The translations under genes and the position numbers were made by a program. A stretch of 64,000 nucleotides of DNA from Candidatus Hydrogenedens sp. (GTDB lineage Bacteria > Hydrogenedentota > Hydrogenedentia > Hydrogenedentales > Hydrogenedentaceae): the NCBI GenBank assembly GCA_035378955.1, contig DAOSUS010000008.1, positions 6,668 to 70,667 of the forward strand. The letters run 5' to 3'. The notes under the pieces are model-generated. The model did no database searches. It saw only the letters and a list, made by a program, of their open reading frames with translations, and had not been told where the DNA came from. This document shows positions 4,478 through 60,005 of this stretch, one piece after another; positions within the stretch are counted from its first letter, which is position 1, and each line of letters starts with the position of its first letter.

Positions 4478-5129
4478 TTAACACCTCGTTCAAAAAATTT
4501 TGTAACAATAAAGCACCACCTATATAACTCTTTTCAGGATGAAACTGTGTTCCGTAAATGTTTTTATTTTGATATAAAGAAATAAAAGAAGTGCCGTATT
4601 CTGTTACCCCCAGATTTCCATCAATTTCTTTGAAAGGGACAAAATAAGAATGGGCAAAATAAAAATTAGGATTTTCTATCATTCCGGATAATAAAGACAA
4701 TTCATCTTTATAAACCTTTACATCGTTCCAACCGATATGAGGCACTCGAATAGGGCTTTTAACTACATTTCGTATATGGCAAACATTTACGGGTATCCAA
4801 CCTAATCCTTTCGACGGACCTTCTTCACTAAATTCTGTCATAATTTGAAAACCTAAACAAATACCTAAAATAGGTTTTTTTAATTCCAATACATAATAAT
4901 TTAATCTTCGGATCAAACCTATCTTTGTTAGAAAATCCATAGCACTACCACAAGCACCAACCCCTGGCAAAACAATACCATCAAATACATCCAGTTCGGT
5001 TTCTTTATTAACAATTTCAATAGAAACTCCTTTTTTTGCAAAAGCCTTATATACAGAATGTATATTTCCTGCCGAGTAATCAATAATCCCAATTTTTATT
5101 TTGTTATTTTGTGTGTTTTCCGTTTTCAT
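4464..5129 (-). CDS. class I glutamine amidotransferase, HisH-like (WbuY-type)
   Basis: Has the GICLGFQ catalytic Cys motif and a C-terminal QFHPEKS His/Glu pair. The likely start is MKTENTQ.. (the ORF track extends to 5159). Confidence 0.75.
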   Translation of the reverse strand: MKTENTQNNKIKIGIIDYSAGNIHSVYKAFAKKGVSIEIVNKETELDVFDGIVLPGVGACGSAMDFLTKIGLIRRLNYYVLELKKPILGICLGFQIMTEFSEEGPSKGLGWIPVNVCHIRNVVKSPIRVPHIGWNDVKVYKDELSLLSGMIENPNFYFAHSYFVPFKEIDGNLGVTEYGTSFISLYQNKNIYGTQFHPEKSYIGGALLLQNFLNEVLNAKS

Positions 5130-6849
5130 TAAAATTATCCTGACTTTGTGCCACCACAAAGTTATTTAAAAATAGATAATCCAATCCTGATTCTTTAAAT
5201 GTTTGTAATGCTTCTTCTGGAGTTCGAACAATAGGCGATTCATGCATGTTAAAACTTGTATTCAGCACTACACTGGTTCCTGATAAATTCTTGTAATGCT
5301 TCAATATTTCGTAAAAAGTCGGATTATTTTCTTTTTTTACAATTTGGGCTCGTGTTGTTCCATCTATATGAACGACCGCCTCATGTTGTTCTTTCATTTT
5401 TGGGGTACTTCGAAAACAGCATGTCATAAATTCACCTGCATGCATTGCCTTTTCATATCCTACCAAAAATTGTTCCGTATCCTCATCTAAAAGAGCAGGA
5501 GCAAAAGGCATAAAATCACTTCGTCTTAACATAGCATTTAATTTTTCCGTTATATTCCGCATTGTTGAATCACATAAAATAGAACGATTTCCCAAAGCAC
5601 GCGGTCCCCATTCCATTTTATCATAAAATCGTGCGATAATTTTTTTATGGTAAATACATTCTGCTATAAACGAAAATATTTGCTGACTATCAAGTTCCTT
5701 AAATGGAAGACCCAATTTAACTATTGCTGTTTTAATATCTTCATTACTAAAGTAATCTCCCCAAAATGCGTGAGGAAGTGATTTGGGATAGAATTGATAT
5801 TGCGAACATATCGCTCCTAAACTCAATCCTCCATCTCCCATATTGGGATATACAAATAATTCTTCGACTTCTTGCAACTCATGTATTCTTTGATTTAGCA
5901 ACACATTAGCAAATACCCCCCCTGCAACCGCTACTTTTTTAAGTCCTGTTTTATTTAGCCAATATCGGATTAAAGAGCAAATTGTCTGTTCTAAAATATT
6001 TTGGGACCATGCACATAAATCCTCTCGTGAATATTTATTTAATAAATGCAAAAGCCATTCTCTTAACTTTTTACCATAAGGGCCTTTATACGAAAGGAAA
6101 TCCTCGTTCCATGAAAAAGGGTTTTCATCTTCAATTTTGTTTGCATCTCCATGGGCGGAAAGTCCTGTAAGTTTTCCTTCATCTCTACATGGGACAAAGC
6201 CTAACACTTCTGTCAGATTTTCAAAAAACAAACCAAAAGAACTTTTTGCAGAGGATTTCCATAATCTCGTTACTGTATTTTCTTTTCCTTTAGAAATAGT
6301 CAAGGATAAACCGTCTCCCATTCCATCGGCAGTAACAATAAGGGCTTCATTATAACCTGAACAGAAATAACTTCCCCATGCATGGGCCTCGTGATGTTCA
6401 ATAAAATGAATAGGGATATTAGCAGGAAGAAACGGTAAGCGTTTGCGAATTATTTTTCTTAAAACGATAGATAGATTTTTTTTCATCCCGTCTGAAGGAT
6501 TGATATAGCTGATAGGATTATAGGAAACCGCCCATTCTGTAATGTTATTCCAGTAGGTCTCACTATTTTGATTTTTCTCTCTTCTGGAAAGAAATGCTTT
6601 TTTTTGCAAGTTAGGGAATAAACGGAAAAAAGGGAATGGGGTTACAAAACCTGAAACACATACTCCCTCTATGTCTTTCCATGTTAAACCTGTTTGCTTC
6701 AAAGCATTTTCCAGAGATAAGTATGGAAATCCTCCCTCATTTTTTCGTCGAGTGTATCGTTCCTCATTGGACATAAATAATATTTGGTCATCATTGCAAA
6801 TAGTAACACCTGCATCGAAAAAATCTTCACTAATTCCAAGTATTATCAT
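5104..6849 (-). CDS. carbamoyltransferase, NodU/CmcH family
   Basis: N-terminus MIILGIS..DAG...NEERYTRRKN is a Kae1/YgjD-like fold typical of NodU/CmcH O-carbamoyltransferases. There is a C-terminal YrdC-like region. Length is ~580 aa. Confidence 0.7.
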   Translation of the reverse strand: MIILGISEDFFDAGVTICNDDQILFMSNEERYTRRKNEGGFPYLSLENALKQTGLTWKDIEGVCVSGFVTPFPFFRLFPNLQKKAFLSRREKNQNSETYWNNITEWAVSYNPISYINPSDGMKKNLSIVLRKIIRKRLPFLPANIPIHFIEHHEAHAWGSYFCSGYNEALIVTADGMGDGLSLTISKGKENTVTRLWKSSAKSSFGLFFENLTEVLGFVPCRDEGKLTGLSAHGDANKIEDENPFSWNEDFLSYKGPYGKKLREWLLHLLNKYSREDLCAWSQNILEQTICSLIRYWLNKTGLKKVAVAGGVFANVLLNQRIHELQEVEELFVYPNMGDGGLSLGAICSQYQFYPKSLPHAFWGDYFSNEDIKTAIVKLGLPFKELDSQQIFSFIAECIYHKKIIARFYDKMEWGPRALGNRSILCDSTMRNITEKLNAMLRRSDFMPFAPALLDEDTEQFLVGYEKAMHAGEFMTCCFRSTPKMKEQHEAVVHIDGTTRAQIVKKENNPTFYEILKHYKNLSGTSVVLNTSFNMHESPIVRTPEEALQTFKESGLDYLFLNNFVVAQSQDNFNENGKHTK

Positions 6850-6879
6850 GAACAATCATTCCTTTGAAATAAAAACAAT

Positions 6880-7872
6880 TTATATCCAGAGAGCATTCCA
6901 GATTGCTGAAGGATTTAAATTCCATATTAGAGCAAGTTCCACTATCGGTGCACACCAACAAGTGGCACAACCTGTGGGTACAGTTAAATGAGTTATTAAG
7001 TTTTCAAAATCTTTTCCATTATCTTTATCTTTTTTCTGTTTATACAATTCTCGGGTTCCAAACAAATGACAAGAAAGTATGGTTCCATCTGGCTCAATTG
7101 TATATGTTAACCTACCAGCACAGCACCATATTTTTGTTGGATGAGGCCAGTTACTTAAATACTTTAAGCCTGCAAATGAATTACGGACAGGTGCCCCTTC
7201 TTTTTTCTTTCTTATTATATCCTGCATCGCATTATAATACGCTTCTTTATCAGGAGCAATAGGATTGGGTTTTAGCGATGAATCCAGATGTAATGTTGCA
7301 GGCTGAAACATTACCTTTGTATGTTCTTCCTGAGCCTTCTGTAAAACAAAATCTATTGTATTTATGTTTAGTTTGGAAATTACACATAAAAAAGAGGTGG
7401 ATATATTTTTCATCTTGCAATATTGCACTACTTCAAATAAACGCTTATAAGTACCCTTTCCCCGTATTTCATCATGTATTTCTTCAGGACCATCAAAACT
7501 CAAGTTAATATGGTCTATATACTTTTCAATCCCATCATATTTTTCTATATTAACACCCGTTGAACTTAAAAAAACATTTAATCCCAGTGATTTTGCATGT
7601 TCCAGAATTTTCATTATATCCTTTTTAATTAAAGGTTCTCCTCCACCAAATGTAATCCATCTCACCCCTGTTTTATATAAAATCGCCAATCGTTCTAATA
7701 TTTCATTTGTATCCAATTCATTCACAGATACTTCTCTTGAACCACAATAAAGGCATTGATAGGGGCAACGAAAAGTTATATTCCATTCCACAAATAATGG
7801 CGAATTTACTCCTAAAACCTTTGTTTTTATCCATGATTTTAATATGGTAGGAATATTTTTTATTTTATTCAT
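6880..7872 (-). CDS. radical SAM protein with C-terminal SPASM-like Cys cluster
   Basis: CxxxCxxC motif (CPYQCLYCG) with a GGGEP glycine-rich SAM motif. The C-terminus carries CCAG...C...CATCWC, an auxiliary Fe-S (SPASM/twitch-like) motif. Confidence 0.65.
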   Translation of the reverse strand: MNKIKNIPTILKSWIKTKVLGVNSPLFVEWNITFRCPYQCLYCGSREVSVNELDTNEILERLAILYKTGVRWITFGGGEPLIKKDIMKILEHAKSLGLNVFLSSTGVNIEKYDGIEKYIDHINLSFDGPEEIHDEIRGKGTYKRLFEVVQYCKMKNISTSFLCVISKLNINTIDFVLQKAQEEHTKVMFQPATLHLDSSLKPNPIAPDKEAYYNAMQDIIRKKKEGAPVRNSFAGLKYLSNWPHPTKIWCCAGRLTYTIEPDGTILSCHLFGTRELYKQKKDKDNGKDFENLITHLTVPTGCATCWCAPIVELALIWNLNPSAIWNALWI

Positions 7873-53933: not shown

Positions 53934-55709
53934 ATGCATCCATTTCGCACACATAACTGTAATCAATTAAGAAAATCCGATGTTGGTAAGGTAGTAAAAC
54001 TATCAGGTTGGGTACATACAAAACGAGACCATGGAGGAGTTATTTTTATTGATTTGCGTGACCATTATGGAATTACACAAATAGTTGTAAATCCAGACCG
54101 TCCTTTTTTCTCGGAGGTAGAAACTGTAAGAAATGAAAGTGTAATTACTATTGAAGGGGAAGTTGTTGCTCGAACCCCTGAAACAGTTAATCCAAATATT
54201 GATACTGGCGAAATTGAAGTGGTTGCAACCAGTTTCCTTCTGGAATCTGCCTGTGAACAATTGCCTTTCCCTGTTAATAAAGAAATAGATGCGCCCGAAG
54301 AACTTCGATTAGAATACCGATTTTTAGACCTCCGGAGAAATACCCTTCATAAAAATATTATGTTGCGTACTCAATTGGCAAAACTTGTTAGAGAACACCT
54401 TATTTCTCGCGGTTTTAATGAATTTCATACACCTATCCTTACAAGTTCCTCACCAGAAGGTGCTCGTGATTTCCTTGTGCCCAGTCGAATATATCCAGGG
54501 CAATTTTACGCACTACCTCAGGCTCCTCAGCAATTTAAACAATTATTAATGATTTCGGGTTTTGATAGATATTTCCAGATAGCCCCCTGTTTTCGTGATG
54601 AAGATTCCCGTGCAGACCGTAGCCCTGGGGAATTCTACCAGATAGATATTGAAATGTCGTTTGTTACTCAGGAAGATATTTTTGACGAACTTGAATTATT
54701 AATGGTTCGTATATTTAAAGAACTCTCAAATAAAAATATTATCTGGGAAAAATTTCCACGAATTCCCTACCGAGAGGCTATGGAAAAATATGGTACCGAT
54801 AAGCCTGATTTGCGTTATGGATTAGAAATGCATGATTGCACAGATATTTTTGCACATTCAGACCTTAAGGTTTTCAGTGCACAGGTGGCTACTGGAGGGG
54901 TTATCAAGGTAATTCATTTACCTCATGCAGACCAACAACCTCGAAAATTCTTTGATGATGCAGAAGAATATGCAAAAAGCGAAGGTGCAAAAGGTTTAGC
55001 ATGGCTTATCCTAAAAGAAGGTGATTTCAAAGGTCCTATAGCGAAATTCATGAAAGAAGAAGAGAAAAAAGCCCTTATACAAAAACTTCAGATGAATGAG
55101 GGCGATGCCGTTTTCTTTGGGGCAGGTTCCAGAAATGAAACCAATACACTTATGGGTAAGGTTCGCACATATCTTGCTCGTCAATTGAATATGATAGATT
55201 CTAATCAAGTAGCCTTCTGCTGGATTGTGGATTTCCCTATGTTCGAATGGAATGAGGAAGAAAAACATTACGATTTCTCTCATAACCCATTTTCTATGCC
55301 TCAAGGTGGAATGGATGTATTACTCAACAAAAACCCGCTGGATATATTGGCATACCAGTACGACATCGTTTGCAATGGAGTGGAACTTTCTTCCGGTGCT
55401 ATTCGTAACCATAAGCCAGAAATTATGTTAAAAGCATTTGAAATTGTTGGTTATCCTCCTGAAGTTGTTAAAAATAAATTTCCAGCATTATGGAAAGCAT
55501 TTCATTACGGAGCTCCTCCTCACGGAGGTATAGCCCCTGGTTTTGACCGAATATTAATGCTTTTGACAGACTCCCCCAATATTCGTGAAGTGATTGCCTT
55601 CCCACTAAATCAAAAAGCACGCGACCTTCTTATGGGCGCACCCAGTGAGGTTACACCAAAACAACTTCAAGAACTGCATATTACTATCGTCCCCCCTAAA
55701 AATAAGTAA
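53934..55709 (+). CDS. aspS: aspartate--tRNA ligase
   Basis: N-terminal OB-fold (GWVHTKRDHGGVIFIDLRD), class II motifs FRDE and GGIAPGFDRILM, and the GAD insertion domain. Confidence 0.9.
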   Translation: MHPFRTHNCNQLRKSDVGKVVKLSGWVHTKRDHGGVIFIDLRDHYGITQIVVNPDRPFFSEVETVRNESVITIEGEVVARTPETVNPNIDTGEIEVVATSFLLESACEQLPFPVNKEIDAPEELRLEYRFLDLRRNTLHKNIMLRTQLAKLVREHLISRGFNEFHTPILTSSSPEGARDFLVPSRIYPGQFYALPQAPQQFKQLLMISGFDRYFQIAPCFRDEDSRADRSPGEFYQIDIEMSFVTQEDIFDELELLMVRIFKELSNKNIIWEKFPRIPYREAMEKYGTDKPDLRYGLEMHDCTDIFAHSDLKVFSAQVATGGVIKVIHLPHADQQPRKFFDDAEEYAKSEGAKGLAWLILKEGDFKGPIAKFMKEEEKKALIQKLQMNEGDAVFFGAGSRNETNTLMGKVRTYLARQLNMIDSNQVAFCWIVDFPMFEWNEEEKHYDFSHNPFSMPQGGMDVLLNKNPLDILAYQYDIVCNGVELSSGAIRNHKPEIMLKAFEIVGYPPEVVKNKFPALWKAFHYGAPPHGGIAPGFDRILMLLTDSPNIREVIAFPLNQKARDLLMGAPSEVTPKQLQELHITIVPPKNK

Positions 55710-55715
55710 GGTAGG

Positions 55716-56504
55716 TCATTTACATAAACAAAAAGGCGAGTTCTTTTCTCTCCAGACCTCGCTTCCTATTTTTATATGGTCTTCCTCAACCCAGAAAAAA
55801 TCTACTTCTTTTGATAACTGCATATTCGGTCTTCGATAAACAAAAAATGGCAGGTCGCGTTTTTTTATTTCTTCTGTTTTATCGAAGTATTCATTTTTAG
55901 AGATATTCAGCATATCTGCATTTTTAAATCCATTCCTTCCCAGAGGCAGAAAACGATATAAATGCCATGCATGAATCTTCGCTCCTTTTTCCCATAAATG
56001 AAGTAAAAAAGCAGTTATCTCATTTAACATATCTAAATTTATTTTGCAAACAACGGTAGAAACAGTAAAAGGAATTCCCTTTTCTGTTAAATATTTCAAC
56101 CTTTGCTTTATTAAATCGTAGTGTTTTCGAAAACCTTTTCGCAGATAATTATGAACCTGAGGATTATTTGAATCAAGAGGTAGAACATATCGGTCAGCAT
56201 TCAAGTTTTCTATCACATTAGGAGTTAAACCAACCCCATTTGTTCCTACTTGAGTATGAAGACCCATTGTTTTTGCTAAATTTATTGAATGGGATAAAGG
56301 ATATTTCCATTGCAAAGGTTCTCCTCCACCAAAAACAACACTTTCCATTTCTCGCCCTTTAACTATTTCCAGGACTTTTTCTACCTGTTTCGGCGTCATT
56401 TCTGATAGGGTATTTTCTGTAATACAGAATAGGCAACTCATGGAACAGGCACCATGAAACATAATTACTCCTACCCTGCGATGTTGAATATTTATTTCTT
56501 GCAT
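55716..56504 (-). CDS. radical SAM protein (small, 262 aa), partner of the B12-radical SAM enzyme
   Basis: CxxxCxxC (CSMSCLFC) and GGGEP motifs. Two Cys residues occur at the C-terminus (FCLCK). Confidence 0.6.
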   Translation of the reverse strand: MQEINIQHRRVGVIMFHGACSMSCLFCITENTLSEMTPKQVEKVLEIVKGREMESVVFGGGEPLQWKYPLSHSINLAKTMGLHTQVGTNGVGLTPNVIENLNADRYVLPLDSNNPQVHNYLRKGFRKHYDLIKQRLKYLTEKGIPFTVSTVVCKINLDMLNEITAFLLHLWEKGAKIHAWHLYRFLPLGRNGFKNADMLNISKNEYFDKTEEIKKRDLPFFVYRRPNMQLSKEVDFFWVEEDHIKIGSEVWREKNSPFCLCK

Positions 56505-56507
56505 GTT

Positions 56508-58634
56508 TTACTTCATCCGAACTGCTGATATGGCAAATCTCAATCCTGTAAAAATTTCAAAAAACAATACTCCTGGTATATAAAACATCTTTTGCCATCG
56601 AAATCTTCCAATAGATAAATCATGTTTTAATCCTATCCACCAACGATTAATTTTTCTTCGATGGGCAACTGATTTTATCATTATTTCTTCGTAACTACAA
56701 ATTATCTTCTTCTTTACCAGGGAATCAAATCGGATTAAGTTTTCAAAATTAGGTACACAGGACTTGAAACTGTTTACCTGTTCTTTTAACCCACTTAATT
56801 GCTGTTCCAACTTTCTCTGTATTTTACGATTCATCTGTCCCGATGTTTGGGATAATTGTAATAGCAACTCGTTGGTCTTTTGAATAATTTGTTCATACTC
56901 CTGAGATACAAATTGGGCATATTGATTGGACTGCAATATTTGTATTAAATGGGCACGAATTTCCTGAAGATAAGAATAAGCAGAGGCTAAAGAGTCCCTT
57001 TTCTCTTTCAACTGTTTCCGTGTTAATAACCATATTTCCTGATATTCATAAAATACCTGCATAATTACTTTAACTTGATTAACAAAATCTTTTATTCTTC
57101 TGTGTAAAAAAGCACCGATACTTTCCATTTCCATTGTTTGACGACGCTCCTTCCGCCCCTTTTTTCTTAAAAATCCCATACTCATAGGATGATTGCTTAA
57201 TAGAGTAGAATAGCGATTCCACAAGGTCAACCAAAAAGCATTCCAGTACTGTTCCGGCGGGCAACGAAGTAATATATCAATAATATTGTCTTTGGAATAA
57301 AAAAGGGACCATGCTTTTAGCCATGATTTTTTTAACTCTCCTACTTTGAAATTAGGATGCGGAAAAGTTTCATGACAACTATCATAGTTGTTGTAATCCT
57401 CTGATATTTGTTCCCCTCTTTCTAACCTCTCTTTATGGTCTTTAGAACCTGGAAGTGGCGTCATAATGAAAAAAGAGGCTTCATCAACCTTTACTTCAGT
57501 TTTTAACAATTTAACATCATGGAGAATGCTTTGTGGAGTATCACAAGGCATACCTAAAATATAACCCACATGGACAAGAACCCCTGCCTTATGCCATGTT
57601 TCTACCATCTCCGCATATTCGGATGTTTTATTTTGTGTTTTTCCCATCAATACAAGATTTTGTGGATTAACACTTTCCATTCCGATAAAAACAAGATAAC
57701 ATCCTGCTTCTGATGCCATACGAACAAAATCAGGGATTTTCCATGATTGCGTATCAATTTGCATCATGAATCGAATTTTTTTACCTTTTTGTTTTAATTC
57801 TATAAGTCCCATAAAAAGTTCTTTCCAGATAGGAGAACGGGACATATTGTCATCTGTAAAGAAATAACTGAAAAACCCGTTGTCATAATTTTGCTCAACT
57901 ATTTGTAAAATCTTTTCTGCAGAACGACACCTAATTTTCCTACCCTGAACATTAATTATGGTGCAGAAAGAACAATTAAATGGACATCCACGGCTTGTAT
58001 CTATCGTACACATTGGTTGCATAAAGTGTTTTAAATATTCGGGGTCTGCTACAGGGATAGGGGCATCCTGAATATCAGGAGATTCTAACACCCTATAATA
58101 CGGTTGTAGTTTGCCATTTATAGCATCATTCAATATATTAGAAAGGACACCGTCTCCTTCTACTTCGCCACAAACGAAACTCACACCCTTATCCATTAAA
58201 AATTTCAAATCAGGGGCATCAGGTCCGAACAGTTTCATAACCCCACTAACATGAAAGCCTCCTATTATCACGGGCACTTGATATTTGCGAAACATTATAG
58301 CCAAATCACTTGCCCGTGCGAACATATTGGTCTGCACACCTACCAGCCCTACTATCAAAATTTCATCTCGTTTTTTACTTTCATGGACAATTTTATCTAC
58401 ATCTATCCTTTGAACAAATTCATCTCTTATTTCGACATGAACCTCAAATTGTTCCTCAAATTTCTTTTCATTAATCAACTTTTGTGTCAGAGCCCTCATA
58501 CATACAAGTGTATTGGATGGCAATAATCCTTTCCAGAAATGATAAGGATAACCATCATCATCATAATGTGAAGGAAGAATATAAAGAATTTTTACATTTT
58601 TCTTTTGTGTTTTTTTATACGAAAACAATTTCAT
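56508..58634 (-). CDS. B12-binding radical SAM protein with ~250-aa C-terminal coiled-coil extension
   Basis: N-terminal cobalamin-binding Rossmann (ILIVGLVGVQT...VIIGGFH) and a radical SAM core (SRGCPFNCSFC). After ~aa 460 comes a Q/E/K-rich heptad-type region ending in a hydrophobic/amphipathic segment. Confidence 0.7.
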   Translation of the reverse strand: MKLFSYKKTQKKNVKILYILPSHYDDDGYPYHFWKGLLPSNTLVCMRALTQKLINEKKFEEQFEVHVEIRDEFVQRIDVDKIVHESKKRDEILIVGLVGVQTNMFARASDLAIMFRKYQVPVIIGGFHVSGVMKLFGPDAPDLKFLMDKGVSFVCGEVEGDGVLSNILNDAINGKLQPYYRVLESPDIQDAPIPVADPEYLKHFMQPMCTIDTSRGCPFNCSFCTIINVQGRKIRCRSAEKILQIVEQNYDNGFFSYFFTDDNMSRSPIWKELFMGLIELKQKGKKIRFMMQIDTQSWKIPDFVRMASEAGCYLVFIGMESVNPQNLVLMGKTQNKTSEYAEMVETWHKAGVLVHVGYILGMPCDTPQSILHDVKLLKTEVKVDEASFFIMTPLPGSKDHKERLERGEQISEDYNNYDSCHETFPHPNFKVGELKKSWLKAWSLFYSKDNIIDILLRCPPEQYWNAFWLTLWNRYSTLLSNHPMSMGFLRKKGRKERRQTMEMESIGAFLHRRIKDFVNQVKVIMQVFYEYQEIWLLTRKQLKEKRDSLASAYSYLQEIRAHLIQILQSNQYAQFVSQEYEQIIQKTNELLLQLSQTSGQMNRKIQRKLEQQLSGLKEQVNSFKSCVPNFENLIRFDSLVKKKIICSYEEIMIKSVAHRRKINRWWIGLKHDLSIGRFRWQKMFYIPGVLFFEIFTGLRFAISAVRMK

Positions 58635-58775
58635 AGCGAAAATCCTCTCTGAGTTGTATTAAAATTAGTGAGTTTCTTCTTCAAAGTTATATTATAATAT
58701 TTCTGTTTTAATATTCTGAAAACATAAACCATGTTACTTTACACTTATTAACGATTAACAAAAGGAGAAAAAAAT

Positions 58776-60005
58776 ATGACAAAGGTAATGTTCGTTATAG
58801 GTTTATCTTTCTTAATGTTCTTTTTATGCTCTTCTTATAATACCGCTTTTACTGATTCTCGTTTCAAAGATGATGTAGAATTTTTGAAACAATATGTAAC
58901 CGTCATTCTATTAAAAGATACAGAATCGAATGGAGAAGTAGCCATTGTTCCTGAATATCAGGGTCGGATAATGACAAGCACAGCGGAGGGACCTGAAGGG
59001 TTAAGTTTCGGCTGGATTAACCGTGAATTAATTTCTTCAAAAAAATTTGAACCTCATATTAATGTCTTTGGAGGTGAAGACCGTTTCTGGATTGGTCCAG
59101 AAGGTGGACAATATGGTATTTTCTTTCCTCCCAATGCACCTTTTGATTTAGAACATTGGCAAACACCTGCTGTTATTGATACAGAACCGTATGAAATAGT
59201 TTCTCAAAATGATAAACAAGTTTCTTTCCGAAAAGATGCGAAATTAAAAAACTGGACAGGAACTGATTTTCAGATATCAATCGAACGCACCGTTAGCATT
59301 TTATCTAAAGAACAAATAGCAGGAGCCTTAGGAGTTAGAATCCCTTCAGGTGTCAAATATATAGGTGTTGAATCCAAGAATAAAATTACCAATACAGGCA
59401 CGGAAGATTGGAATAAGGAAAAAGGTTTGCTCTCTATCTGGATATTAGGAATGTTCAACCCCTCCCCCGAAACAACCATCGTTATACCCTTTTTACCCGG
59501 TTCCGAAGAAAATTTAGGTCCGAAAGTAAACGATGCTTATTTTGGCAAAGTTCCAGCAGACCGACTAATTGTAAGGGATAATGTGGTTTTCTTCCGTGGC
59601 GATGGTCAATATCGCAGTAAAATTGGAATTTCACCTAAACGGGCATTATCTGTTTGTGGAAGTTTTGATGCCAAAAATAAAGTTTTAACTATTGTTCAAT
59701 ATAGTAAACCCGATGTTCCAAAACCCTATGTAAATTCTATGTGGGAACTGCAAAAAGAACCGTATGGAGGTGATGTAATCAATTCGTATAACGACGGTCC
59801 GTTAGGTCCCGGGAAAAAGCCCTTAGGACCCTTCTATGAACTGGAAACTTCTTCGCCAGCAGAAGAATTGAAAAAGGGAGAACATGTTGAACATACCCAT
59901 CGCACATTTCACTTTATAGGAAGTGAAAAAGAATTAAATTATCTGACAGAGGAAATATTAGGTATTGATTTACAAACCATCCAGAGTGTTTTTGCAAGTA
60001 ACTAA
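58776..60005 (+). CDS. hypothetical secreted protein
   Basis: Signal peptide (MTKVMFVIGLSFLMFFLCSS). It is beta-rich and has no recognisable motif. Confidence 0.35.
   Translation: MTKVMFVIGLSFLMFFLCSSYNTAFTDSRFKDDVEFLKQYVTVILLKDTESNGEVAIVPEYQGRIMTSTAEGPEGLSFGWINRELISSKKFEPHINVFGGEDRFWIGPEGGQYGIFFPPNAPFDLEHWQTPAVIDTEPYEIVSQNDKQVSFRKDAKLKNWTGTDFQISIERTVSILSKEQIAGALGVRIPSGVKYIGVESKNKITNTGTEDWNKEKGLLSIWILGMFNPSPETTIVIPFLPGSEENLGPKVNDAYFGKVPADRLIVRDNVVFFRGDGQYRSKIGISPKRALSVCGSFDAKNKVLTIVQYSKPDVPKPYVNSMWELQKEPYGGDVINSYNDGPLGPGKKPLGPFYELETSSPAEELKKGEHVEHTHRTFHFIGSEKELNYLTEEILGIDLQTIQSVFASN

Follow-up and report, generated by a model that had tools for sequence, protein, structure and literature searches.

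The two adjacent radical SAM genes described here encode, in the interpretation that we hold with moderate confidence, two separate and independently distributed enzymes, both uncharacterised, which form one transcription unit in the Candidatus Hydrogenedens lineage. Their pairing is lineage-restricted and does not represent a conserved two-gene system, since each of the two families is widespread and usually occurs alone. Judged by sequence comparison, neither the large nor the small protein belongs to a characterised family.

Both genes lie on the minus strand of the 64,000-nucleotide stretch of DNA that was analysed (the window) and are convergent on aspS. The locus, read in the direction of transcription, contains:

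58691..58720, minus strand: candidate sigma-70-like promoter, TTCAGA-18-TATAAT, 5′ of the large gene, 10/12 consensus matches

58643..58648, minus strand: ribosome-binding site AGAGGA, 8 nt 5′ of the large-gene ATG, read from the sequence

56508..58634, minus strand: large radical SAM gene, 708 aa, class-B-type architecture, member of a very large family of ~700-aa proteins, uncharacterised

56505..56507, minus strand: intergenic spacer AAC, 3 nt, between the large-gene stop and the small-gene start, the junction reading TAA-aac-ATG

55716..56504, minus strand: small radical SAM gene, 262 aa, single cluster and viperin-like compact barrel, from an uncharacterised family of its own

The stop codons of aspS (55707-55709) and of the small gene (55716-55718) are separated by 6 bp. 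These coordinates, together with the open reading frames, their motifs and the TAA-aac-ATG junction, bear out the first-pass annotation, in which two radical SAM genes 3 nt apart had been described as converging with aspS across 6 bp from stop to stop. Both are real genes, since both have numerous homologues: more than 7,900 for the large protein and, in a word-index search, 134 for the small one. No terminator-like site was found in the region 55400-59000, including the junction of the large and small genes, and this, with the 3-nt spacer, implies a single transcript of both. The promoter sits in a 141-bp intergenic region shared with a divergent DUF6786 gene and is a candidate only, because the count of such sites in the region is not above that in shuffles. 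Around the pair are found aspS, the DUF6786 gene, a T2SS-F-like gene, pseudopilin-like ORFs, argJ and argC. Neither a precursor-peptide gene nor a pathway cluster is among these neighbours, as had been noted before, and an Rfam scan of the whole window gave nothing at gathering score.

The AF2 model of the large protein (pLDDT 86, pTM 0.87) is composed of a Rossmann-like domain, a barrel and a helical tail, the first two of which contain the following features:

58092..58601, minus strand: N-terminal Rossmann-like domain, aa 12-181, alternating strands and helices with pLDDT 90-98 and fold matches to class-B enzymes

57195..58013, minus strand: radical SAM barrel (aa ~208-480) with FFTDDN at 258-263, assigned from PF04055, the model and a profile match to the cores of AprD4, TokK, MgmA and TsrM

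57963..57986, minus strand: CX3CX2C motif with C217, C221 and C224, the predicted ligands of the SAM-cleaving [4Fe-4S] cluster, invariant in 57/57 sequences

57357..57398, minus strand: acidic/His loop D413-N415-D418-(H421)-E422-T423-H426, defined by invariant columns, pLDDT <50 at residues 413-420

The cluster motif reads CPFNCSFC (C217/C221/C224), and PF04055 matches residues 213-377 with 55 bits against a cut-off of 29.5 (Pfam). The only invariant cysteines of the family are these three and C312; none occurs in residues 1-200 of the 57-sequence alignment, and conserved cysteines for a second cluster were found in neither protein. The Rossmann-like domain is marked in the family alignment by the invariant motifs YDDDGY...LPSNTL, VGVQxNxF, GGFHVSG and GEVE, the last two of which we take to be the GGxHxS/T-like and GExE-like motifs of class-B enzymes. 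Conserved residues of the barrel are mostly polar or charged, and the loop from D413 to H426 may be a metal or substrate site. Relatives of ~700 aa are 42-93% identical over 98-100% of their length, the more remote full-length ones still sharing 42-49% identity over 98% of it, and most complete ORFs of the family, whether from the metagenome or from loci fetched one by one, encode ~650-780 aa. The family is present in Hydrogenedentota, in a Ca. Binatia branch and in others.

The class-B architecture is defined by a Rossmann-type domain that precedes the radical SAM barrel, and both the AF2 model and the fold matches (best to AprD4, TsrM, CysS, TokK, MgmA and OxsB) show it in the large protein. 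TsrM, TokK, CysS, MgmA/QCMT and OxsB have this same layout and are matched by Foldseek with E = 1e-9 to 1e-12; the large protein differs from class-B enzymes in that identities are as low as 12-17%, that PF02310, the B12 domain, stays below threshold, and that its tail is unlike their C-terminal domains, with a query-normalised TM of only 0.40-0.45. In detail, PF02310 has no match in the large protein at E <= 1 (Pfam) and only sub-threshold ones in 13/57 relatives, the best with E = 0.0015, and precomputed Pfam annotation of 240 listed relatives contains PF04055 only. The Rossmann-like domain is a distant relative of the domains that bind B12.

The best solved relative by both sequence and fold is the radical SAM 1,2-diol dehydratase AprD4 (PDB 6FD2), matched with E = 1.3e-10 by the single protein and 1.3e-14 by the family profile. 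It, too, carries an N-terminal Rossmann-like domain ahead of the barrel. AprD4 is only 15% identical, is 457 aa long without the basic helical tail and, unlike the large gene, is encoded in an aminoglycoside gene cluster; the NCBIfam AprD4 model gives the large protein 46.6 bits where the cut-off is 500. AprD4 does not bind cobalamin, AprD4- and ArsL-type relatives are without it, and no sequence motif decides on cobalamin binding, which in solved enzymes is base-off with no histidine ligand (PMC12931638). Since its closest solved relative lacks cobalamin, B12 binding cannot be assumed for the large protein. The label "B12-binding" given in the first-pass annotation is therefore supported only as far as the class-B architecture goes, with PF02310 sub-threshold at best and AprD4 as nearest solved relative.

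Placement of both proteins by Pfam, NCBIfam and PADLOC yields generic core matches only. Membership of the large protein in HpnJ, HpnR, BchE, PhpK, KedN5, ladderane lipid rSAM, BzaD, MgmA, TsrM-type and AprD4 families was rejected, the scores being 30-68 bits against NCBIfam cut-offs of 360-700. The first-pass annotation had named a HpnR or BchE family and a PFL or RNR activase as placements speaking against its reading, and all of these lie far below the NCBIfam cut-offs. No characterised member came out of the literature searches, which covered radical SAM enzymes in Hydrogenedentes, those acting on lipids or brGDGT, and archease in connection with radical SAM. An analogous three-part arrangement is seen in MiaB, RimO and MtaB, which combine a flavodoxin- or Rossmann-like domain, a barrel and a macromolecule-binding C-terminal domain; the large protein differs in being without the conserved N-terminal auxiliary-cluster cysteines and without TRAM (Pfam), and scores 31 bits with the MiaB-type model TIGR00089, whose cut-off is 251. 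Some of its relatives are labelled "MiaB" by some sources.

The C-terminal part of the large protein comprises two further features:

56511..57194, minus strand: C-terminal tail, aa 481-708, with HPM motif, basic linker K492/R494/R497/R498 and seven long helices (506-707)

56514..56597, minus strand: last helix, aa 680-707, hydrophobic, with conserved E693, R699 and F700

The tail (residues ~481-708, ~227 residues) is rich in L/Q/I/K/S/E/R and carries a net charge of +20 (pI 10.1). Tails of the family are basic in 57/57 sequences, with a median charge of +19, a pI of 10.6 and a minimum of +11, compared with -3 and pI 6.5 for the core. The AF2 model predicts a compact seven-helix bundle and not an extended coiled coil, which replaces the earlier picture of a Q/E/K-rich coiled coil; nor is the tail an unusual extension, as it had been called, being common to the whole very large ~700-aa family. 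No Pfam family matches the tail, and no known RNA-binding domain was detected in the large protein. A search of 1.84 billion representatives with the tail alone returned just 26 matches, in every case as the C-terminal end of a ~700-aa protein or a fragment of one; because all share the same architecture, the search gave no functional lead.

The maximum of hydrophobicity over a 19-residue window (KD19) falls in the C-terminal helix both here and in 9/10 of the highest-value members listed; it is 1.51 in this protein, has a family median of 1.61 and reaches 2.0. The Eisenberg <H> of the last helix has a median of 0.55 with two charged residues, and the helix is transmembrane-like in 1/57 members. 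With E693, R699 and F700 conserved, it does not clearly qualify as a transmembrane segment, and a classical transmembrane anchor was rejected. Of the earlier suggestion of a hydrophobic, possibly membrane-associated end, the hydrophobic character stands and a transmembrane one does not.

These properties bear on whether the large enzyme modifies membrane lipids, as HpnP/HpnR, GrsA/B and Gmm do, and is held at the membrane by its basic amphipathic and hydrophobic C-terminal helices. The class-B-type architecture, the basic tail with the most hydrophobic window in its C-terminal helix, and weak matches to HpnJ, HpnR and ladderane-lipid models are consistent with such a role, as is the fact that many lipid-modifying radical SAM enzymes are of the B12 type (PMC13459092). 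In the second lineage in which the pair occurs (L002, see below), it sits between Kdo genes and LpxC/FabZ-LpxD-Skp-BamA genes, which fits as well. Against this, the lipid-family scores are 40-65 bits where the cut-offs are 360-650, the terminal helix is transmembrane-like only in that single member and keeps its Glu and Arg, the conserved barrel residues are of the polar or charged kind, and no lipid-synthesis gene recurs beside the large family in about 90 loci. We consider this role unlikely.

The small protein is predicted to be a compact single-domain barrel (pLDDT 93), with two conserved elements:

56424..56447, minus strand: CX3CX2C with C20, C24 and C27, from sequence and alignment

55929..55973, minus strand: family signature HAWHLYRFLPLGRNG, aa 178-192, with invariant A179, W180, H181, Y183, F185, G189, R190 and G192

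The cluster motif is CSMSCLFC (C20/C24/C27), and PF04055 scores 58.4 bits against the cut-off of 29.5 (Pfam). The signature HAWHLYRFLPLGRNG also served as a search pattern. The protein ends in ...FCLCK, so that the terminal CxC noted before is indeed present here; it recurs only in the closest relatives and is not a conserved feature of the family, in which no cysteine beyond CX3CX2C is conserved. A SPASM/twitch maturase was rejected, as there is no C-terminal Cys-rich domain and SPASM models match the core only, far below their cut-offs; a RiPP maturase was likewise rejected, given that the SPASM domain and a precursor are missing and the genes stand alone. That both proteins are radical SAM enzymes of unassigned substrate, co-transcribed, as first proposed, is supported by PF04055, CX3CX2C and the 3-nt spacer.

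Among known folds the small protein is closest to viperins (TM 0.72 over ~250 residues), followed by PFL-AE (TM 0.62-0.65). Its best PDB sequence matches are viperin-like enzymes, to which the family profile adds BlsE among its best solved-structure matches, and the PADLOC pVip models are matched with E = 1e-22 and 78.9 bits. This could point to a prokaryotic viperin, an antiviral enzyme converting NTP to ddh-nucleotides. However, only positions 11-195 of the 262-position pVip profile are matched, and because the match ends there, the C-terminal, substrate-binding part of pVip is unmatched; the likeness is one of compact partial-barrel fold and core, with the C-terminal third of the small protein unmatched. 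The NCBIfam viperin model NF038283 scores the small protein at 53 bits, its cut-off being 180, and the small family has invariant motifs of its own (HAWHLYxF, GRGG). Within the Hydrogenedens clade, seven small-family loci retain the same housekeeping genes beside the small gene, aspS and DUF6786 for example, and no kinase or defence genes were found near the small gene. We regard a viperin function as very unlikely. A generic glycyl-radical activase of the PflA/NrdG type, with its target encoded elsewhere, would agree with the size and the PFL-AE-like fold, but viperin-type folds match better, and the weak NCBIfam matches to NrdG2 (46.2 bits vs 131.15) and PFLA (41.7 bits vs 231.75) are far from their cut-offs. 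With no glycyl-radical enzyme in the window and none recurrent in 72 small-family loci, this assignment appears even less probable.

The distribution of the two genes shows how rarely they meet. The small gene accompanies the large gene in 2/86 large-family loci, the remaining 84 having no partner within 8-10 kb, and the large gene lies within 10 kb in 0/72 distant small-family loci, so that the two-gene module proposed in the first-pass annotation does not hold generally. The two genes are adjacent in only two Hydrogenedentota lineages, namely the Hydrogenedens clade, throughout which it is kept down to 60% identity, and L002, where the large-to-small order is the same and the spacer is 17 nt instead of 3 nt. 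In bootstrap trees made with our own neighbour-joining code, the two paired lineages are united in 9% of replicates for the large protein and 0% for the small one. Both L002 genes group with unpaired relatives in their respective trees, and those nearest to the paired P0016 are unpaired as well.

A dedicated two-enzyme module, in which the class-B and the small enzyme act sequentially on one substrate, be it a lipid, a cofactor or a peptide whose gene lies elsewhere, has in its favour the co-transcription implied by the spacer and missing terminator, the persistence of the pair across the Hydrogenedens clade, and the repetition of order and tight spacing in L002, whose genes group with unpaired relatives in both trees. 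Both families are, moreover, common in Hydrogenedentota and occur together in at least one MAG, GCA_016215105.1. Its two large paralogues (57% identical) and its single small gene are spread over three contigs, however, which counts for their independence. A functional link is plausible because tight pairing in two non-sister lineages is not easily a chance adjacency of unrelated genes. The partner is nevertheless absent from all the distant small-family loci and nearly all the large-family loci counted above, Ca. Binatia carries the large family and is absent among the 80 best small-family species loci, and the large gene is more commonly followed by another gene, archease, which never occurs near the small family. 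We therefore hold a dedicated module to be fairly improbable, and prefer two independently distributed enzymes that share a transcript in this lineage.

Elsewhere, the large gene is found alone or followed by archease, often then RtcB, and the small gene is found alone. Nine distinct loci carry archease downstream in the same orientation, with RtcB next in five, which makes archease a commoner neighbour of the large gene than the small radical SAM gene is; neither archease nor RtcB was found near the small family (0/81 loci). This neighbourhood accounts for ~10% of loci, all among large proteins 52-67% identical to one another. No neighbour is conserved for either family in the 80 GTDB small-family loci or in the 80 metagenome and 12 individually fetched large-family loci. 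Synteny is lineage-specific only, with FtsEX/EnvC/Ctp in a Binatia-like lineage, a HydG-like gene, and ZnuABC.

In the mechanism that we propose, both enzymes would generate the 5′-deoxyadenosyl radical, and the basic helical tail would dock the large enzyme on a polyanionic macromolecular substrate. For the target of the tail we tentatively and narrowly favour RNA, itself less likely than not, over an anionic membrane surface or lipid. The evidence for RNA is the basic tail and the archease neighbourhood in that tenth or so of the loci; the hydrophobic terminal helix and the LPS and outer-membrane genes of L002 speak against it and fit a membrane substrate. The large enzyme would carry out a methylation or C-C/C-H chemistry of the class-B type, with or without cobalamin, and the substrate of the small enzyme would be a polar small molecule, perhaps resembling a nucleotide. 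In Hydrogenedens the small enzyme may serve the same process as the large one, without being its obligate partner. A bolder version, which we think rather improbable, is that the ~700-aa family comprises the first radical SAM enzymes of class-B architecture acting on RNA, docked by their tails and linked to archease-RtcB ligation or repair, and that in Hydrogenedens the large enzyme works together with a viperin-like, nucleotide-type radical SAM enzyme in the synthesis or repair of a modified RNA nucleoside.

For annotation, it would be wrong to treat the pair as a conserved biosynthetic module, to transfer the label "B12-binding", or to name the small protein a viperin or an activase despite its matches to pVip defence profiles. 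Finding the function of the large family would annotate thousands of genes in abundant uncultured phyla, including Hydrogenedentota, which live in bioreactors, sediments and the guts of termites, and the soil-dwelling Ca. Binatia. The substrates of class-B-type radical SAM chemistry might also be extended by a new class, whether RNA or an unusual membrane lipid.

The pair consists of a large and a small radical SAM gene on the reverse strand, with these features in and around it:

55716-56504, (-): small radical SAM gene, 262 aa, CSMSCLFC, C-terminus FCLCK
56508-58634, (-): large radical SAM gene, 708 aa, CPFNCSFC
upstream of the large gene: TTCAGA-18-TATAAT promoter-like site
upstream of the large gene: AGAGGA ribosome-binding site
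58776-60005, (+): DUF6786 protein, Pfam E = 1e-166, hydrophobic N-terminus
6880-7872, (-): third radical-SAM-like ORF, 330 aa, 21% identity to the small protein over 201 residues, E = 7.5e-8

The large and small genes are joined by TAA-aac-ATG, a spacer of 3 nt, and 6 bp separate the stop codons of the small gene and aspS; the two ORFs and both distances are exactly as the first-pass annotation had them. The sequence is most simply read as one transcript for both genes, given the promoter-like and ribosome-binding sites before the large gene and the absence of terminator-like sites in 55400-59000. Both proteins match Pfam Radical_SAM above threshold, and the many homologues of each mark them as real genes. 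The neighbours (aspS, argJ, argC, DUF6786, a T2SS-F-like gene and pseudopilin-like ORFs) agree with the earlier statement that no pathway genes are adjacent, and the genes around the pair in the window give no pathway context. No Rfam family reached its gathering score in the full 64-kb window (1-64000), so the window has neither tRNA nor rRNA genes and the pair is preceded by no riboswitch. A locus 93% identical was found in Candidatus Hydrogenedens terephthalaticus, in keeping with placement of the window in that genus. The DUF6786 gene diverges from the large gene across 141 bp, and seven Hydrogenedens-clade loci share the order DUF6786, large, small, aspS. The third radical-SAM-like ORF adjoins a carbamoyltransferase (5104-6855).

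The large protein reached no curated NCBIfam family, with best scores of 42-68 bits against cut-offs of 250-650 (PhpK, HpnJ, TIGR04013, BchE, the ladderane-lipid enzyme, AprD4 and HpnR), and so lies outside the characterised families, HpnR and BchE included, as first supposed. Of 8,000 candidates scored in the large-family search, more than 7,900 reached significance; among the best 120, almost every match is ~700 aa long, at 42-93% identity across 98-100% of the length, and most complete ORFs from the metagenome loci and those fetched individually measure ~650-780 aa. A distant branch (41% identity), very abundant in soil metagenomes, is Ca. Binatia. Since ~700 aa is the typical length, the tail (residues 481-708), previously described as unusually long, is the family norm. 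The AlphaFold model is confident (pLDDT 86, pTM 0.87) and has three parts:

residues 12-181: Rossmann-like domain
residues ~208-480: radical SAM barrel
residues 506-707: seven long helices

In this model the domain order is that of class-B enzymes, which together with AprD4 are the closest known enzymes. The best Foldseek matches in the PDB are AprD4, TsrM, CysS, TokK, MgmA and OxsB, at query-normalised TM-scores of only 0.40-0.45, the tail having no counterpart in them. The B12 binding originally proposed cannot be asserted: this protein has no PF02310 match and 13 of 57 relatives have one only below threshold, matches of the large-family profile to solved structures are confined to the barrel, and neither AprD4, the closest solved relative, nor ArsL-type relatives contain cobalamin (PMC12931638). 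Across the family, cysteine is invariant at only four positions, the three cluster ligands and C312, which leaves no auxiliary cluster and rules out a MiaB-type identity. An invariant loop (D413-N415-D418-E422-T423-H426), modelled with low confidence, may bind a metal or the substrate.

The tail belongs to no Pfam family, and a single-sequence query against 1.84 billion representatives retrieved just 26 matches, each of them the C-terminus of a ~700-aa protein or a fragment of such a protein. Its helical character is constant despite low sequence conservation. All 57 members have a strongly basic tail (median net +19, pI 10.6, minimum +11), and the catalytic part is slightly acidic (-3, pI 6.5). 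The hydrophobic C-terminal segment noticed at first is indeed the most hydrophobic stretch in this protein (KD19 1.5, against a family median of 1.6) and in most of the relatives examined, but a classical membrane anchor is unsupported, as the helix contains conserved E693, R699 and F700 and is transmembrane-like in only one of 57 members (median Eisenberg hydrophobicity 0.55). The helix may bind the membrane peripherally or pack against the core.

The small protein likewise reached no curated family (bits against cut-off: NirJ2 65/500, viperin 53/180, NrdG2 46/131, PFLA 42/232). Its model is very confident (pLDDT 93) and resembles viperins (TM 0.72 over ~250 residues) more closely than PFL-activase (TM 0.62). 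PADLOC pVip profiles match it (E = 1e-22) over profile positions 11-195 of 262 only, and three invariant motifs in the alignment are particular to the family: GGGEP, QVGTNG and HAWHLYxFxPxGRGG. The conserved cysteines are those of CX3CX2C alone; the terminal CxC pointed out earlier is present, but is confined to the nearest relatives. From these scores, fold, partial match, motifs and cysteines, the small protein is a single-cluster enzyme of viperin-like fold in an uncharacterised family, viperins being its closest known enzymes by fold. Viperin itself was rejected on score, partial match and motifs, a generic activase, in line with the first-pass annotation, on the NrdG2 and PFLA scores and the closer viperin fold, and a SPASM maturase for want of conserved cysteines outside CX3CX2C. 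In one homologue (P0235, 346 aa), an extra region matching PF02416 (TatA/Hcf106 family) may reflect either a genuine fusion or two genes merged in gene calling.

In the less biased sample, the gene found most often next to the large one is archease (PF01951): nine distinct loci (L003, L088, L092, L093, L097, L101, L102, L113, L173) have it directly downstream in the same orientation, at a distance of 7-246 nt, and in five of them RtcB comes next. RtcB is an RNA ligase, and archease activates it. Large proteins at six archease loci are 52-67% identical in pairwise comparison, and the three archease-linked ones included in the family tree fall in three subclades. Neither archease nor RtcB occurs near the small family in 81 loci, and a literature search found no paper that connects archease with radical SAM enzymes. 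Metal-transporter genes (ZnuA and ABC-3) stand downstream of the large-family gene at two unrelated loci (L085, L169).

The canonical SAM-cleaving cluster site is present in each protein, and both enzymes would make a 5'-deoxyadenosyl radical. The large protein joins class-B-type domain order to a basic helical domain, which would dock it on a polyanionic substrate; the small one, a viperin-like barrel, would probably take a small polar substrate. RNA is a tentative candidate for the polyanion: archease and RtcB neighbour the large gene at some loci, the gene stands alone with a housekeeping-like distribution, and its three-part design is analogous to that of MiaB. A membrane surface or lipid, only slightly less likely, draws on the hydrophobic last helix, the envelope genes beside one paired locus (L002) and the precedent of lipid-modifying class-B enzymes (PMC13459092). 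Substrates of other kinds take the remaining probability. Action of the large enzyme on RNA through its tail, tied to archease and RtcB, with the small enzyme teamed in Hydrogenedens, is improbable as a whole.

A GTDB-wide scan of the small family covered its 80 best species loci (Hydrogenedentota, Planctomycetota, Holophagaceae and other Acidobacteriota, Omnitrophota, Bdellovibrionales and others). The large-family gene is directly upstream in only eight, all with a small protein at least 60% identical, and within 10 kb in none of the remaining 72; the survey found no other conserved neighbour. The small gene is present at two of 86 large-family loci (80 from metagenomes, six fetched individually), both close Hydrogenedens relatives. 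The two-gene module proposed at the outset therefore does not hold across the two families. In the Hydrogenedentota MAG GCA_016215105.1, two large paralogues with basic tails and 57% identity (L172 and L174, on JACRLJ010000022.1 and JACRLJ010000059.1) and one small gene (L032, JACRLJ010000016.1) occupy three contigs, so the two families co-occur unlinked and the large one has paralogues.

In 10 of the 72 loci, from Planctomycetota and Acidobacteriota, the small-family gene adjoins one for a generic class-I SAM methyltransferase (PF08241/PF13649), which is either upstream and divergent (L029, L034, L038, L039, L070) or downstream and convergent (L037, L069, L072, L077, L078); this may be lineage synteny. 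A HydG/ThiH-like radical SAM gene with a BATS domain lies ~2 kb downstream in five Hydrogenedentota loci (L014, L020, L025, L044, L073). Record titles reading "uncultured Nitrospirales" (L009, L011, L022, L024, others) are apparently mislabelled; L009 and L011 have the Hydrogenedens-type pair (61-71% identity), and the small genes of L022 and L024 cluster with Hydrogenedentota relatives.

L002 is a second tight pair, with a 17-nt spacer, whose lineage differs from the Hydrogenedens clade in both gene trees (bootstrap for grouping them 9% for the large protein, 0% for the small). The paired homologue P0016 clusters with P0017-P0021 (bootstrap 89%), unpaired as checked for two of these. Membership of named families fails in every case on curated cut-offs, and both proteins represent uncharacterised radical SAM subfamilies, a kind with many examples. 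Their partnership is clearly dispensable, and the same gene order, kept or re-created in two lineages, is some evidence of a functional link.
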